21,210 nt of DNA from NCBI GenBank assembly GCA_012690745.1, contig GCA_012690745.1_4086.5; one strand, 5' to 3'. Numbering within the stretch: position 1 is the first letter of the stretch; each line of letters begins with the position of its first letter. The DNA comes from a phage. This document shows positions 209-20,833 of this stretch, piece after piece. The position numbers and the translations under genes are program-made. The notes under the pieces are model-generated. The model was not told where the DNA came from, did not search any database, and saw nothing but the letters and a program-made list of their open reading frames with translations.

Positions 209-706
209 ATGACAACTGTTTATATTGATAAACGATTAAATTTATTGATTACCGATTCTAGAGTTACGTCAACTATACCACGAAACTTATTTGGTTTTTT
301 CCCACTAAGACCAAAATATCAATATGGAGTTGTTAATCAAAAAACTTTATATGTACATGACCGTTTATTCAGTGCTAGTGGGTCAGTAAGTGAAATTGAT
401 AAAGTACTGGATTGGTTAATTAATAAAGTACCAGTTATACCTGACAGAAAGTTAAGTTGCCATTGTGTGCTTCTTTCTAAAGATTATGTTATTCATATGA
501 TTTTAACTAAAGGAAAGTTTATTAAAAAACTTGAATATCTACATGAAGACTACACTTTCTTTATGGGTAGTGGTGGAGAATACATGCTAGATGCTGCTAT
601 TCATGAAGAACATACAACTTTATATGATAAAGTGTTTAGTACTTTCATGGATGTGCATAACCATGATTGCTTCACAGATGATAATATTAATGTATATCGA
701 TTTTGA
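209..706 (+). CDS. HslV/ClpQ-like (proteasome beta-type Ntn-hydrolase fold) protein
   Basis: 165 aa. N-terminal MTT (Thr directly after Met as in HslV), internal SASGSV and a GSGG motif (FFMGSGGEY) spaced as in E. coli HslV (AGFAGGT … IAIGSGGPY), and similar overall length. Motif-level similarity only. Confidence 0.6.
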   Translation: MTTVYIDKRLNLLITDSRVTSTIPRNLFGFFPLRPKYQYGVVNQKTLYVHDRLFSASGSVSEIDKVLDWLINKVPVIPDRKLSCHCVLLSKDYVIHMILTKGKFIKKLEYLHEDYTFFMGSGGEYMLDAAIHEEHTTLYDKVFSTFMDVHNHDCFTDDNINVYRF

Positions 707-727
707 TTTCGTCATTAGGAGATGTAA

Positions 728-1693
728 GTGAAAAAGCTTGATTTAAATACAATTGCCGAAGAAGTTCTGGATGAATGTTTTGCTAATGAAGAAGTCAACA
801 CACTAGAAGCCTTAGATTTCGTTGAAGATAAAGATGAAAATGAAGGTAAAGTACAAAGCAGTTTCAAATATAATATTACACTTAAGCGACCACCAAATGT
901 TTCCAATGAAGATCTAATTCGTGATATTCAAGCTGGTATCAATGTAAAGAAAAACACTGAACTGTTAGTTCGTTACAATTATGGACTTATTATTGATGTA
1001 GCAAGTAAATGTACTTGTTATATCCCATTTGAAGATAAGATTTCATATGGTGTTGAGGGGTTCATGAGAGCACTAAAAACCTTTGATCTTAATAAGAATG
1101 TTAAGTTCATTACCTATGCTTCTTCTAGTATTTACATGACAGTTTATAACGAAAGTTCTGACGCTAACTATATGGTACACTTCCCACGTTATATGAGTGT
1201 TCATAAGATCAAAGTAAAAAGATTCTGCCAGGAATATATGCGTAAACATGGTGTTCGCCCAACTCCTGAAATAATCTCAGAGGGTACTGGGATTGAGATT
1301 CAGCATGTTAATAACTGTTTGTTATTTCAAAGCGAATACACTTCTCTGGATGCACCATTAGACGGTGTTACCGATGGTACACTAGGTGACATTATTCATT
1401 CACCTGCTTCTGATTTTAACCTCAATGTTGATAGTATTCGTGCACCTTTACGTTATGCTATCAATGAACTGACTAACGAATTGAGTACTAAAGAACGTGA
1501 GATTATCCATCGTGTTCATGGTCTAGGTGAATATGAACCTGAAACGCTTCGTGAGATTGCTGATAATGGTTTTGTTGATGATAATGGAAAATATGTTAAA
1601 TCCCGTTCATCAATACATCGAAAGTACAGTGAAGCTATGCAAAAGCTTAAGAAGCTAGTACTTGCAAAAGGGTACGAATACGAAGATTTCTAA
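728..1693 (+). CDS. sigma-70 family RNA polymerase sigma factor
   Basis: GTG start 7 nt after AGGAG (716..720). Acidic N-terminus; region 2 (LVRYNYGLIIDVASK … YGVEGFMRALKTFD … FITYASS); region 3 (FPRYMSVHKIKVKRFCQEYMRKHGVRPTPEIISE, cf. sigma70 IPVHMIETINKL…GREPTPEELAE); region 4 HTH (LSTKEREIIHRVHGL … TLREIADNG … RSSIHRKYSEAMQKLKK). Confidence 0.85.
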   Translation: MKKLDLNTIAEEVLDECFANEEVNTLEALDFVEDKDENEGKVQSSFKYNITLKRPPNVSNEDLIRDIQAGINVKKNTELLVRYNYGLIIDVASKCTCYIPFEDKISYGVEGFMRALKTFDLNKNVKFITYASSSIYMTVYNESSDANYMVHFPRYMSVHKIKVKRFCQEYMRKHGVRPTPEIISEGTGIEIQHVNNCLLFQSEYTSLDAPLDGVTDGTLGDIIHSPASDFNLNVDSIRAPLRYAINELTNELSTKEREIIHRVHGLGEYEPETLREIADNGFVDDNGKYVKSRSSIHRKYSEAMQKLKKLVLAKGYEYEDF

Positions 1694-1700
1694 AGAAAAA

Positions 1701-1727
1701 AGGTTGGCTTATGCCAACCTTTTTTTA
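1701..1727 (+). terminator. intrinsic terminator (variant of the repeated hairpin module)
   Basis: aggttggc-ttat-gccaacct followed by a 6-T run, immediately after the sigma factor stop codon. Confidence 0.7.
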
Positions 1728-1747
1728 TGGGATGAAGTAAAAGTTTG

Positions 1748-1756
1748 TGATATAAT
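1748..1756 (+). promoter_or_regulatory. extended -10 promoter (TGaTATAAT)
   Basis: tgaTATAAT at 1748..1756 with no good -35; predicted start near 1763 would drive the ORF-free segment downstream. Confidence 0.45.
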
Positions 1757-2780: not shown

Positions 2781-3569
2781 ATGAGCACTATCGATGAACT
2801 GATTCAACGGAATTCAAAATATTACCAACCATCAGAAATTGTGGATAACATTACTAAATCTGAGTTTGGACCGAACACACGCAAACTCATTCATGTAATG
2901 TCACGTGATGGCTTTAAATGTGATTGTTGTGGTGAATCAAATGTAGTATTCACTTTACACAAGCACAGTACTAAAGAACGTTATAAATTCAGACCTTATG
3001 TACTTAAAGGGAAACGCCTTGTACGCATGACGTTAGACCATAATGTACTGGACTGTCTTCAGGGCGGTAATGATAAAGAGAACATGACTGCACTGTGTGA
3101 AGATTGTAACGCATTACGCCAGCATAAGTTTGCTGAATACAGTGAGTTTAAACACTGGTATCATAACGCGGATCGTTCAATCGAGCCTGACGTTAACTAC
3201 TGCTTCATTGAGTACATTAAGAATGCCAAAGATACATACATTCTTAAATCAATGTCACCTATTACCGTGTTTCCTGAGAACCTATTCACTACATTAAAGA
3301 ATAGTTTTATTGTAGGTGATATTGATGCATTCAAGTATTTTGACAAAGGTGCAAAACATTTTGAAATTCAATGTCTTAGTACTGCACTATGTGAACTCAT
3401 TAAAATTTACATAAAAGAGTATTTGGGTATTGACAATGTACGTGTACCAGAGTATACTTTTTCTATTGAATTCGATTGTGAATCAATCAAAGAGTTTGGA
3501 ATTCTTTTCAATAAACAAATAGAACTTGCAATTCAAAACGAAATCAAGTACTATACTACTAACATTTAA
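2781..3569 (+). CDS. HNH-family endonuclease
   Basis: CDCCGES … MTLDHNVLDCLQGGNDKENMTALCEDCNALRQHK: DH-N, GG, N, Cys pairs and terminal H-K in the order typical of the HNH nuclease motif; C-terminal ~150 aa unassigned. Confidence 0.8.
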   Translation: MSTIDELIQRNSKYYQPSEIVDNITKSEFGPNTRKLIHVMSRDGFKCDCCGESNVVFTLHKHSTKERYKFRPYVLKGKRLVRMTLDHNVLDCLQGGNDKENMTALCEDCNALRQHKFAEYSEFKHWYHNADRSIEPDVNYCFIEYIKNAKDTYILKSMSPITVFPENLFTTLKNSFIVGDIDAFKYFDKGAKHFEIQCLSTALCELIKIYIKEYLGIDNVRVPEYTFSIEFDCESIKEFGILFNKQIELAIQNEIKYYTTNI

Positions 3570-4074: not shown

Positions 4075-4102
4075 TTGACATAAGATATCAGTACTGTATA
4101 AT
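4075..4102 (+). promoter_or_regulatory. sigma70-type promoter TTGACA-16-TATAAT
   Basis: TTGACA 4075..4080, spacer ending gtactg, TATAAT 4097..4102; same spacer-end motif as promoters at 8385 and 18736. Confidence 0.6.
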
Positions 4103-9968: not shown

Positions 9969-10160
9969 ATGTTGATTTATCAAAGTGATAATATTCGTGT
10001 TATGCAGCATCCCTACTTACAAATCTTTGATGTGCAGCAGTATATGGAAGGTGATGACCCAAGAACCTATGGTCGTAAGTATGATTACTTCACTGTAAAG
10101 CAGTGTAAAAATATTAACGAAGTACGACAATTAGTTCAAGAACTTCAAAACAAAGGTTGA
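9969..10160 (+). CDS. hypothetical protein
   Basis: Track start 9915 overlaps upstream gene; in-frame ATG 9969 has AAGGA 8 nt upstream. The TGA stop lies inside the downstream terminator hairpin. Confidence 0.55.
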   Translation: MLIYQSDNIRVMQHPYLQIFDVQQYMEGDDPRTYGRKYDYFTVKQCKNINEVRQLVQELQNKG

Positions 10161-10186
10161 CTTCGGTCAGCCTTTTTTGTTATAAT
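10152..10186 (+). promoter_or_regulatory. terminator hairpin fused to promoter (repeated module, copy A)
   Basis: ggttgac-ttcg-gtcagcc stem-loop (10155..10172) plus T6; TTGACT inside the stem (10157..10162), 18-nt spacer, TATAAT 10181..10186. Confidence 0.7.
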
Positions 10187-12890: not shown

Positions 12891-12918
12891 TTTAACTTTG
12901 GGACAACCATTCTTATTA

Positions 12919-12927
12919 TGATATAAT
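12919..12927 (+). promoter_or_regulatory. extended -10 promoter (TGaTATAAT)
   Basis: tgaTATAAT at 12919..12927. Confidence 0.4.
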
Positions 12928-13005: not shown

Positions 13006-13389
13006 ATGGTTGATAAATGGAATAAGAAAGATCCATCACATGATGTTGATATTTCTGGTCTAGACAATGCACATAAGCACAAGTATCTAGATTCACTAGG
13101 TCTTCTAAAACCAGACCAAAGTCTTGCACATGATCGTCCATCCCGTGAAAAAGCATTTAGCCTAGAATCACTAGGTCATGAGCTTAATCGTGTGTTTGAG
13201 GATCACCCAATCTATGTACGTGATATTATCGAGAAACTTAAAGTAACTCCTAAAGAGCACTTTAAAGCAACTGTACACTCTGCATTCCGTGCATTACATG
13301 AATCTCTAAAGAAAACTCACAATCTTCGTAAAATTCATGATGAAATCGTGAATGCAATCGAAAGTGAAAAACATAAGTTCAAGAAGTAA
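13006..13389 (+). CDS. hypothetical protein, paralog of the N-terminal region of the 13635 product; candidate late (virion-associated) protein
   Basis: AGGAG 8 nt upstream. Shares KYLDSLGLLKPDQ and …IIEKLKVTPKEHFKATVHSAFRAL with 13635 (RYVNSLGLLNATQ; …IVKELQSVPKEELKVKAQAVLDAM). Confidence 0.7.
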   Translation: MVDKWNKKDPSHDVDISGLDNAHKHKYLDSLGLLKPDQSLAHDRPSREKAFSLESLGHELNRVFEDHPIYVRDIIEKLKVTPKEHFKATVHSAFRALHESLKKTHNLRKIHDEIVNAIESEKHKFKK

Positions 13390-13571: not shown

Positions 13572-13579
13572 CAAAATAA

Positions 13580-13617
13580 GGTTGACTTCGGTCAGCCTTT
13601 TCTTTATACTATAAATA
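13580..13617 (+). promoter_or_regulatory. terminator hairpin fused to promoter (copy C) overlapping a TATAAATA late box
   Basis: ggttgac-ttcg-gtcagcc (13580..13597) plus T-rich run; TTGACT 13583..13588; exact TATAAATA at 13610..13617. Confidence 0.65.
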
Positions 13618-16006: not shown

Positions 16007-16039
16007 GGGTTGACTTCGGTCAGCCTTTTTTGTTATGAT
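16007..16039 (+). promoter_or_regulatory. terminator hairpin fused to promoter (copy E)
   Basis: gggttgac-ttcg-gtcagcc (16007..16025) plus T6; TTGACT 16010..16015, 18-nt spacer, TATGAT 16034..16039. Confidence 0.7.
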
Positions 16040-16067
16040 GTTGGTATTAACTACAGAGGATAAAGTA

Positions 16068-16709
16068 ATGACTAAGCAAGACATATTCAAAACTTTAATT
16101 GACATTTTGCGTCCATCAAAAACTCGTTGTGCGATGGAGTTTGATATTCCTTATGCTGAACGCGTAATCTTTCCACAAGTTAAAGCTGCTGGACTTACTT
16201 TGCTTGGAATGGGGATGTACTCTGTAGTAGTTGAACATAAAAACTATCCTGGGCGTGCATTTAAAGTAACCACTTCACGCTGGGATGGTTTTCGTGCTTA
16301 TGCAAAGTACTGCATTGAAAACGCAGGAACCAAGTTTCTTCCAGTGATCTACAGTGCAAACGAACAAGGAAACTTTGGATGGTATGAGATGGACAAGTAC
16401 TATCCTATAATTAAACAAAAAAATAATTATGATGACTTTGTTAGTACTAAAATTGGAGATTTATATTCTTATGCACATGCTGGTCAGTACGCTACTTCAG
16501 TGAATGATATGCGTGGAAATTCTGAAGAGATTGCTATTGCGACGGTCGCTGCTAACATCATGAAAGAGTTTCACGGGCGTTTTGTACCAGACATTCATTC
16601 CAGTAATGTCATGATGGATAAAGATGGCAATGTATTCATTACTGATCCTCTTTCGTGTGATGTACGTAGAGAAATACCAGTTACTGAAGAAGATCCAGTT
16701 TTTTATTGA
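16068..16709 (+). CDS. protein-kinase-like (atypical kinase fold) protein
   Basis: Track start 16035 lies inside the -10 box; ATG 16068 has GAGGA 7 nt upstream. Gly-rich loop LLGMGMYSVVV, candidate beta3 Lys in RAFKV, catalytic-loop-like VPDIHSSNVMMD and DFG-like ITD in canonical order. Confidence 0.65.
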   Translation: MTKQDIFKTLIDILRPSKTRCAMEFDIPYAERVIFPQVKAAGLTLLGMGMYSVVVEHKNYPGRAFKVTTSRWDGFRAYAKYCIENAGTKFLPVIYSANEQGNFGWYEMDKYYPIIKQKNNYDDFVSTKIGDLYSYAHAGQYATSVNDMRGNSEEIAIATVAANIMKEFHGRFVPDIHSSNVMMDKDGNVFITDPLSCDVRREIPVTEEDPVFY

Positions 16710-20356: not shown

Positions 20357-20833
20357 ATGACACGCATTAACTTAGTACACGTTAAAGAACTTGCTGACCA
20401 ACATCTGATGGCTGAATATCGTGAACTCCCACGTGTATTTGGTGCTGTACAAAAACACGTTCAAGCACGTAAGCGTGTACGTGATTTCAAAATTAACAGT
20501 ACTTATCTGTTAGGTTCAGGTCATGTAACATTTTTCTACGACAAGTTACTGTACTTACAGAAGCGTCATATTGATATTGTCAACGAATGTCTGCGTCGTG
20601 GTATGAAGATTCAAAACACTGAAGTAAACGACATTAGCGGCTTCCCTGCTGAGTTTTGTAATGACTACGTACCAACGGAGTCAGAGATTAAAATGTCTCG
20701 TGACCGTTTGATTGAGAAGCTCCAGATGAAGCCTACGTGGTATAAGTTTACTGATGTTGAATGTCCACAGTACGTTAAAGATATGTTGAATGAAATTGAA
20801 GAACAAATCAAAGATGAAATGAATAACTATTAA
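20357..20833 (+). CDS. denV: pyrimidine-dimer DNA glycosylase / AP lyase (T4 endonuclease V homolog)
   Basis: [35 protein letters not shown]…RVRDFKI…[10 protein letters not shown]…PTWYK matches the T4 DenV sequence as I recall it, including N-terminal Thr2 and Glu23; GAGGA upstream. Confidence 0.9.

Follow-up and report, generated by a model that had tools for sequence, protein, structure and literature searches.

An RpoD-like sigma factor is a described hallmark of the RaK2-like jumbo phages and probably recruits the RNA polymerase (RNAP) of the host (PMC7824862, PMC5259590, PMC11895373). According to Iyer et al., all 'group 2' jumbo phages encode two sigma types, one minimal and one RpoD-like (PMC7824862). 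In phage CBB the RpoD-like factor, CBB_513, contains sigma regions 2, 3 and 4, is encoded in the presumed early region and occurs together with a separate gp55-like factor (PMC5259590). Here a gene of this kind is analyzed, located at positions 728-1693 (+ strand) of a 21,210-nucleotide stretch of phage DNA (assembly GCA_012690745.1, contig GCA_012690745.1_4086.5; hereafter the window). Its product is a genuine three-domain (sigma2-sigma3-sigma4) sigma-70-family factor, and a third class of phage promoters, distinct from the early and late classes, is put forward below as its candidate regulon.

Among cellular factors, E. coli sigma70 and sigmaS provide the best sequence and fold matches and have the same sigma2-sigma3-sigma4 order, but the window sigma differs from both in lacking region 1.1 and the non-conserved region, in its vestigial region 1.2 and in carrying an insertion of 7-10 residues in its helix-turn-helix. 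The late factor gp55 of T4 resembles it in being phage-encoded and in using the host core RNAP, as is predicted for the window sigma. T4 gp55 is, however, essentially a sigma2-only protein that reads TATAAATA, whereas the window sigma has sigma3 and sigma4 domains and no match to the gp55 family of PHROG. Another phage regulatory scheme of relevance is that of SPO1, which proceeds through gp28 and then gp33/gp34. There the host sigma transcribes early genes including that of a phage sigma, which turns the RNAP to the middle genes, and a later phage sigma comes after it (PMC13401047). The concept is alike, yet the proteins and host are unrelated, and the SPO1 cascade has been proven by experiment, the one outlined below being deduced from sequence. 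The coliphage phiEco32 also encodes a sigma-70-family factor, gp36, which associates with the core RNAP of E. coli and recognizes -10 and -35 elements specific to the phage; unlike the window sigma, it has two domains, keeps a tryptophan wedge (W90) at -12 and needs gp79 (PMC12276001). No PDB match of the window sigma at E<=1e-3 named phiEco32 gp36.

An earlier note, made from the letters of the window alone, had proposed a complete sigma70-family factor at this locus, and Pfam, NCBIfam, PHROG 351, AlphaFold and Foldseek all bear this out. The gene and the domains of its product are laid out as follows.

717..721, + strand: ribosome-binding site AGGAG, 6 nt 5' of the GTG start (sequence inspection)
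728..1693, + strand: sigma factor coding sequence, 321 aa, GTG start and TAA stop (read from sequence, profiles and model)
728..877, + strand: acidic N-terminal region, residues 1-50, with 14 D/E against 5 K/R and the motif MKKLDLNxIxxEVLDECF
878..1168, + strand: sigma2 domain, residues 51-147, 1.2-like plus 2.1-2.4 (Pfam r2, pLDDT 74-89, alignment to sigma70 373-456)
1187..1324, + strand: sigma3 domain, residues 154-199 (Pfam r3 over its cut-off, sigma70 alignment, AlphaFold)
1325..1429, + strand: linker, residues 200-234 (pLDDT <50; region 3.2 assigned by position only)
1430..1666, + strand: sigma4 domain, residues 235-313 (partial Pfam r4, pLDDT 79-88)

Searches with the Sigma70 region profiles of Pfam placed region 3 (residues 162-226) well over its cut-off, with 37.7 bits against 25.3, and left the other two about 1 bit under theirs: r2 scored 23.0 against 24 over residues 80-140, and r4 scored 22.7 against 24.1 in a partial match (profile positions 4-28 of 50) that ends at residue 279. 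For the sigma2 domain the profiles, the residue alignment to sigma70 373-456 and the AlphaFold/Foldseek results agree, and the sigma3 domain, a property of sigma groups 1-3, is given by Pfam r3. The sigma4 helix-turn-helix is present (helices 254-264, 274-279 and 293-313; AlphaFold pLDDT 79-88) in a form made atypical by a conserved insertion (residues 281-290). In NCBIfam the superfamily model for sigma70, TIGR02937, scored 42.9, exactly its cut-off, and a phmmer search of the PDB gave RpoD as best match (E=7e-17), the nearest solved relatives being RpoD, SigA, SigB and RpoS. An AlphaFold model based on a 29-sequence alignment shows three helical domains in a sigma-type fold, with a mean predicted local distance difference test (pLDDT) of 68.8. 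Its top 50 Foldseek matches in the PDB are all sigmaS, sigmaA or sigma70 chains, with low global TM-scores, as expected for a three-domain protein modelled outside the holoenzyme. The protein is very probably a working sigma factor that uses the host core RNAP.

The description of the product as 'primary-type' does not hold in the strict sense. The NCBIfam model RpoD_Cterm matches residues 79-283 (E=8e-25) with 87.8 bits against an equivalog cut-off of 354, the full-length RpoD model scores 63.6 against 555, and the product stays far under all the RpoD, RpoS and FliA equivalog cut-offs of NCBIfam. Region 1.1, the tryptophan dyad and the -12/TGn readers are missing, and in place of a full region 1.2 there is only a truncated 1.2-like stretch (residues ~45-70), plausible by eye; in Pfam neither Sigma70_r1_1 nor r1_2 was found at E<=1. 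Of the regions listed in the earlier note, 2, 3 and 4 were therefore recovered and 1.2 was not. Residues 1-50 are mostly disordered in the AlphaFold prediction, with one helix at residues 6-18, and by analogy this acidic segment may take the place of region 1.1. The separation made in the note from the gp55-type late factors, small sigma2-only proteins that match phrog_234, was sound, as PHROG 351 ('RNA polymerase sigma factor', E=5e-60) is the sole PHROG family matched by the window sigma; the presence of an RpoD-like factor is nonetheless what is expected of a RaK2-like phage, not the surprise that the note took it for.

The window is Asteriusvirus DNA (121Q/PBECO4-like, genomes of ~350 kb) at ~95% nucleotide identity, and its first 8 kb match slurp01, UB, SP27, phAPEC6, 121Q and PBECO4 in a nucleotide search. 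The complete 121Q genome was used as a proxy for the remainder of the genome, and open reading frames (ORFs) were called heuristically. The GTG start is backed by the N-terminus MKKLDLN, common to 13 of the 13 aligned relatives, and the annotation of 121Q places the start identically. In a tblastn search of phage records the window sigma is 99% identical to 121Q gene 167, annotated as RNA polymerase sigma factor, and has homologues with 31-45% identity in RaK2, 7t3, GAP32, CBB, Yen9-04 and XbC2. Among 1.84 billion representative proteins, 15 clusters were recovered at E<=1e-30, followed by a clear drop to generic sigmas. Similarity over the full length, the motif MKKLDLN...EVLDECF, small residues in place of the tryptophan dyad and the insertion G-[FY]-x-D-x-x-G identify the window sigma as a member of a narrow, discrete clade of RpoD-like factors of RaK2-like jumbo phages.

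The sigma gene itself is already known, with annotations in dozens of GenBank records and a place in the literature as a hallmark of the jumbo-phage group; it is not new because 99% identical proteins have been annotated and mentioned in several papers, those on Sharanji and phAPEC6 among them. The annotated orthologues (121Q gene 167, those of PBECO4, phAPEC6 and GAP32, Sharanji WNN14470.1, RaK2 ORF244 and CBB_513) are the same gene in the same early-region position. The literature found on the RaK2-like sigma mentions neither the loss of the tryptophan pair, nor the helix-turn-helix insertion, nor a link to a promoter class. What goes beyond the records and papers is the detailed divergence of the DNA-reading residues, this insertion, a sharply defined candidate regulon and the cascade model.

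Residue correspondences were taken from a HMMER alignment to E. coli sigma70 and from a family alignment (n=13), and the functional roles of the sigma70 residues from a review (PMC2613000). Three segments concentrate the differences.

1106..1150, + strand: region 2.3/2.4 motif FITYASSSIYMTVYN (sigma70 and family alignments)
1568..1597, + strand: helix-turn-helix insertion G-F-V-D-D-N-G-K-Y-V, residues 281-290 (family alignment, AlphaFold)
1598..1666, + strand: sigma4 recognition helix KSRSSIHRKYSEAM... (family alignment; contact roles from PMC2613000)

The tandem tryptophan that the earlier note found wanting in region 2.3/2.4 is indeed absent. Residues 127-140, FITYASSSIYMTVY, align with FSTYATWWIRQAIT of E. 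coli, so that W433 and W434 correspond to S133 and S134; the loss is family-wide (SS, TS, TT, AA or SA in 13 of 13 members), and the window sigma contains no tryptophan at all. A further DNA-melting residue, Y425, is replaced by V. Contacts to the duplex and to -12 have changed as well (R436 to Y, Q437 to M137, T440 to Y140, R441 to N and R451 to H), as have the TGn-contact positions H455 (Y155) and E458 (V158). Where group 1 and 2 sigmas have aromatic melting residues, W433-W434 and the -12 readers Q437/T440, the window sigma thus presents S133, S134, M137 and Y140. The triplet IRQ is kept in the distant members P0012, 7t3, CBB and XbC2, with IYM or IHM in Asteriusvirus and RaK2. Residues kept from sigma70 include N383, D403, G408, F419, K426, F427, Y430 and R584.

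In sigma4, the insertion follows the pattern G-[FY]-x-D-x-x-G-K with G281, D284 and G287 invariant, lies in the turn of the helix-turn-helix and is modelled by AlphaFold as a small beta-hairpin. The recognition helix after it reads KSRSSIHRKY against VTRERIRQIE of sigma70; in sigma70 numbering R584 is kept (R293), while E585, R588 and Q589 are replaced by S294, H297 and R298, respectively. Judged from these alignments, the DNA-reading surface has diverged further than the loss of the tryptophan dyad alone implies.

The 'T4-like context' assumed in the earlier note is fair in a distant sense, given that 121Q carries a set of T4-like core genes: gp23-like capsid, gp20 portal, gp17 terminase, gp43 polymerase, gp41 helicase, gp44 clamp loader, UvsW/UvsY and gp46/47. 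A gp55-like factor also exists in this genome type: the product of 121Q gene 591, which adjoins the gp47/46 homologues, matches the T4 gp55 family (phrog_234, E=8e-18), so that the RpoD-like sigma supplements the late factor and does not take its place.

Four tightly packed genes (121Q 164-167), the sigma gene being the last, lie behind consensus sigma70 promoters at 121Q positions 87672 (12/12 matches) and 87993 (11/12). The first terminator after these promoters is the hairpin directly 3' of the sigma gene.

1702..1726, + strand: intrinsic terminator GGTTGGC-TTAT-GCCAACC followed by T7, -11.9 kcal/mol, closing the early operon

Since sigma70 promoters lie upstream and no terminator intervenes until after the sigma gene, this gene is expected to be early and transcribed by the host holoenzyme. 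The 165-aa ORF (MTT...) at 209-706 (+ strand), co-transcribed with the sigma gene and ending 22 nt upstream of it, is weakly HslV-like (phrog_1040, E=1e-6), and in RaK2 and 7t3, too, an ORF of about this size is found ahead of the sigma gene; the product of the window ORF could be a protease partner of the sigma. Also in the early region, at 16035-16709 (+ strand), is a gene for a T7 gp0.7-type protein kinase (phrog_15752, E=2.5e-97) annotated as a host transcription inhibitor, which may modify host RNAP or RNases during the transcription switch.

Promoter classes were derived from k-mer enrichment over 250 upstream regions of 121Q. The early class, TTGACA-N17-TATAAT (aaaAGTACTTGACA-N17-TATAATgttttacat), occurs with at least 10/12 matches in 91 regions and is densest at 50-200 kb, a segment that includes the window, where six strict sites were found and where an early promoter lies, for instance, at 4075-4102. 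The late class, (c)TAAATA, lies 20-55 nt ahead of capsid, portal-region, tail and baseplate genes; it is similar to the late promoter of T4 and in keeping with the gp55-like factor. The third class has the consensus (G/T)(G/A)GACA-N13-TG(A/C)TATAAT, its form in 121Q being GGGACA-N13-TGnTATAAT. The loose pattern [GTA][GA]GAC[AG]-N13-TGNTA[TC]AAT occurs 23 times on the + strand of 121Q and never on the - strand, against 0.13 occurrences expected from Markov-2 simulations. When all 85 + strand TGnTATAAT sites were listed without bias, the G-rich box formed a distinct cluster and TTGACA was very rare in register. Third-class sites precede ssb (two sites), primase, exonuclease, helicase, topoisomerase II and tRNAs, as well as genes for a ClpP-like protease, a nudix hydrolase and a ClpA-like protein and the DNA polymerase region. 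One of them lies 63 nt upstream of the gp55-like gene. Two candidate targets of the sigma fall within the window.

12900..12927, + strand: exact third-class promoter GGGACA-N13-TGATATAAT, upstream of the ORF at 13006..13389; proposed sigma target
1729..1756, + strand: third-class-like site GGGATG-N13-TGATATAAT with 2 mismatches (0.08 expected by chance); proposed sigma target

An element of the same kind has been reported for CBB, where TG(A/G)AAC(G/A)-N13-TGnTATAAT was listed at 18 sites (main text and supplementary Table S6), mostly ahead of DNA-synthesis genes and in one case ahead of the gp55-like gene, with no factor assigned by the authors (PMC5259590). The exact CBB motif TGAAACG is absent from 121Q, and was set aside as a separate motif, being the same element with lineage-specific bases. 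The enriched word AATAGTT was likewise rejected as a new element, being the spacer or upstream part of strong early promoters. No coherent motif beyond the third class emerged from the upstream regions that have no early or late promoter, nor from the sites with a good -10 and a poor -35.

The 5' leader of the gp55-like gene in 121Q and relatives contains a conserved stem-loop between the third-class promoter and the start codon. Its stems vary compensatorily among genera (GGTACAAGGATTGTACC, GTAAAACAAGGATCGTTTTAT, GGGACACGGATGGTCTC), which suggests post-transcriptional control of the late sigma.

These elements can be arranged into a cascade of three sigmas, from host sigma70 through the phage RpoD-like sigma to the phage gp55-like sigma. 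The sigma gene would be read early by the sigma70 holoenzyme of the host, as last gene of an operon driven by TTGACA-N17-TATAAT promoters. Its product is predicted to bind the host core RNAP through sigma2 and sigma4, and the resulting holoenzyme would be steered to a 'middle' class of phage promoters, namely the third class. These would drive the replication and nucleotide-metabolism genes, structured RNAs of ~480 nt (see below) and the gene for the gp55-like sigma, which in turn would read the TAAATA late promoters. The idea, already voiced in the earlier note, that host core RNAP could be redirected to a subset of promoters by the window sigma is thus plausible, and the evidence leans, by a small amount, towards assigning the third class to this factor.

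Several observations speak for the assignment. The three sigmas match the three promoter classes in number, and the timing logic fits, with an early product switching on the replication genes and the late sigma. With 16 bp between it and TATAAT, the third-class box has the spacing of a canonical -35 element. It also varies between genera in step with the sigma. Ahead of topoisomerase II, 121Q and three 7t3-like genomes have the box GAGACA, where GAP32, CBB, BF, Yen9-04 and the XbC2-like genomes have GAAACA or GGAACA; ahead of the gp55-like gene, Asteriusvirus and 7t3-like phages show GGGACA and the CBB/GAP32/Yen9-04/XbC2 group shows G(G/A)AACG. The sigma4 helix splits likewise, with R584/H588 in Asteriusvirus and 7t3-like phages versus K584/S588 in the CBB group. 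In sigma70, position -33 is read via residues 585/588 and position -31 via residue 584 (PMC2613000). The genus-variable base of the box corresponds to -33 and the constant C to -31. 121Q and CBB both have TTGACA at their early promoters, and region 4.2 of host sigma70 is essentially identical across these enterobacterial hosts; the lineage difference in the -35 box therefore points to a phage-encoded reader. Between genera the sigma has diverged much faster, with 35-44% identity, than topoisomerase II (69-84%) and the gp55-like sigma (73-78%) of the same genomes.

Other observations weigh against this assignment. With its near-invariant TGn and perfect TATAAT the third class should suit host sigma70, and the phage sigma has none of the known TGn contacts, -12 contacts or tryptophan wedge. 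CBB and 121Q have a common -10 motif in spite of their different region 2.4 residues (IRQ versus IYM). The link between -35 box and recognition helix comes down to one phylogenetic split, the CBB group being the outgroup by topoisomerase II identity, and RaK2, compared through orthologous promoters, fits loosely only (TGGACA, TGAACA, TGAATA). In the core-binding region 2.2, Q406, E407 and N409 are altered to S, Y and V, with D403 and G408 kept. The promoter survey has 121Q standing in for the rest of the genome to which the window belongs, and literature searches on this sigma and on Asteriusvirus promoters returned annotations only, with no experiment or transcriptome.

The same promoter features could be accounted for if the protein were a working sigma serving other promoters, the third class consisting of extended -10 promoters of host sigma70 at which a separate phage activator reads GGGACA in the manner of T4 MotA/AsiA. 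The perfect TGnTATAAT, the match of four of the six third-class -35 positions to TTGACA, the lack in the phage sigma of the residues with which sigma70 contacts TGn and -12, and the small helix-turn-helix regulator that adjoins the sigma gene in CBB and XbC2 would all suit such an arrangement. A box at the normal distance from TATAAT, and not at -30 as the MotA box, does not, nor does the failure of the k-mer and residual analyses to reveal a fourth enriched intergenic motif. Pairwise phmmer searches of all 121Q ORFs with T4 AsiA and T4 gp55 gave no match; for AsiA this is a weak test, as the query sequences were approximate and the gp55 relationship surfaced only with the PHROG profile. With three sigmas for three promoter classes offering the simpler account, an activator acting with host sigma70 seems unlikely, while being the most serious of the alternatives.

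A role at the TTGACA/TATAAT promoters themselves is a less probable alternative, in which the phage sigma replaces host sigma70 there after the latter, or the RNAP, has been modified or shut off, for instance by the gp0.7-like kinase. In its favour, group 1 and 2 sigmas give the best profile matches, R584 is kept, and a kinase annotated as host transcription inhibitor is encoded in the window; but nearly all the promoter-specificity residues of sigma70 are replaced, the helix-turn-helix carries an insertion, and the sigma diverges fast between genera while the early promoter consensus stays constant. Least probable of all is that the protein acts as a competitor or decoy, occupying core RNAP or displacing sigma70 and so shutting off host genes without directing initiation. 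The loss of the dyad and other melting aromatics and the acidic N-terminus could be read in this way, yet Y130, Y140, R298, Y300, G281, D284 and G287 are strongly conserved in the DNA-facing helices and insertion, where a pure decoy would have no need of them. Moreover, group 3 and 4 sigmas do not have the tryptophan dyad and are active.

In its complete form, the proposal is that a tryptophan-free sigma with replaced -12/TGn contacts and a helix-turn-helix hairpin programmes core RNAP to read GGGACA-N13-TGnTATAAT as the middle step of a cascade, controlling replication genes, the late sigma and the structured RNAs, with a -35 box that co-evolved with the sigma4 helix. Joined in this way, the parts make a tentative model, held at slightly below an even chance.

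The structured RNAs are represented in the window immediately after the sigma gene. The 650 bp that follow the sigma terminator contain no ORF and bear no annotation in 121Q, and the third-class-like site at 1729..1756 points into this region. The 121Q genome has four paralogous copies of the element with 70-80% mutual identity, each starting at a third-class promoter.

~1763-2245, + strand: ORF-less structured-RNA-like element of ~480 nt, beginning at the promoter-like site 1729-1756
121Q 192775-193330, 247465-248080 and 326630-327185: the other paralogues in 121Q

A blastn search located 258 occurrences of the element in 62 phage records, each genome having 3-5 copies; all these phages are RaK2-like jumbo phages. 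It is ~70% identical to copies from genera whose sigma protein is only 31-37% identical, its DNA being better conserved across genera than the sigma protein. Every sigma locus retrieved has a copy no more than ~7 kb downstream of the sigma gene, and in RaK2 and Asteriusvirus it follows the gene directly. The consensus structure of a 14-sequence alignment has 62 base pairs, and compensatory changes are seen in 34 of these. Standard pairs occupy 97.2% of the pair cells, against 35-46% when partners are slid, with a covariation score of 0.442 where the slid controls reach 0.123 at most; 0 of 500 shuffles reach the observed values. Scans of the window for tRNAs and Rfam families gave no match, the structured RNA having none in Rfam even at E<=10, and the phage genome papers found on the group do not mention it. 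The element behaves as a conserved structured RNA and may be the most novel object in the window; from their promoters, such RNAs are proposed as targets of the window sigma. Outside the window, ~2 kb of unannotated 121Q DNA (135195-137160) also opens with a third-class promoter (121Q 135759) and has short repeats common to many early intergenic regions.

Some further features of the region were recorded. Fused terminator-promoter modules occur at 10152-10186 and 13578-13610 (+ strand) of the window and recur at 121Q 98719, 109300, 110582 and 112750; their stem AAGGTTGACTTCGGTCAGCCTT includes TTGACT as -35 hexamer, with a TATAAT-like -10 after the T-run. The palindrome AGTACT is strongly over-represented, with 903 occurrences against 118 expected in 121Q and 66 against 7 in the window (e.g. 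403, 638, 1484, 1657 and 2023), and CAGTACTG occurs 194 times against 3.4 expected. AGTACT sites are found in all reading phases, in intergenic DNA, in the spacers of promoters and in the loops of terminators. Phage genomes usually avoid palindromes. The window also encodes a free-standing HNH endonuclease (2781-3569, + strand; phrog_35175) and a homologue of T4 endonuclease V, denV (20357-20833, + strand).

The system is testable in E. coli, as it combines a small sigma with a sharply defined candidate regulon of 23 sites in 121Q and two sites in the window, and the natural differences between genera in the -35 box and the recognition helix make specificity-swap experiments possible. Such experiments would show how a sigma factor melts and reads a TATAAT-type -10 without the tryptophan wedge or the usual -12/TGn contacts. 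They would also establish the timing programme, the expression of a conserved structured RNA included, for a group of phages of which therapy studies make use.

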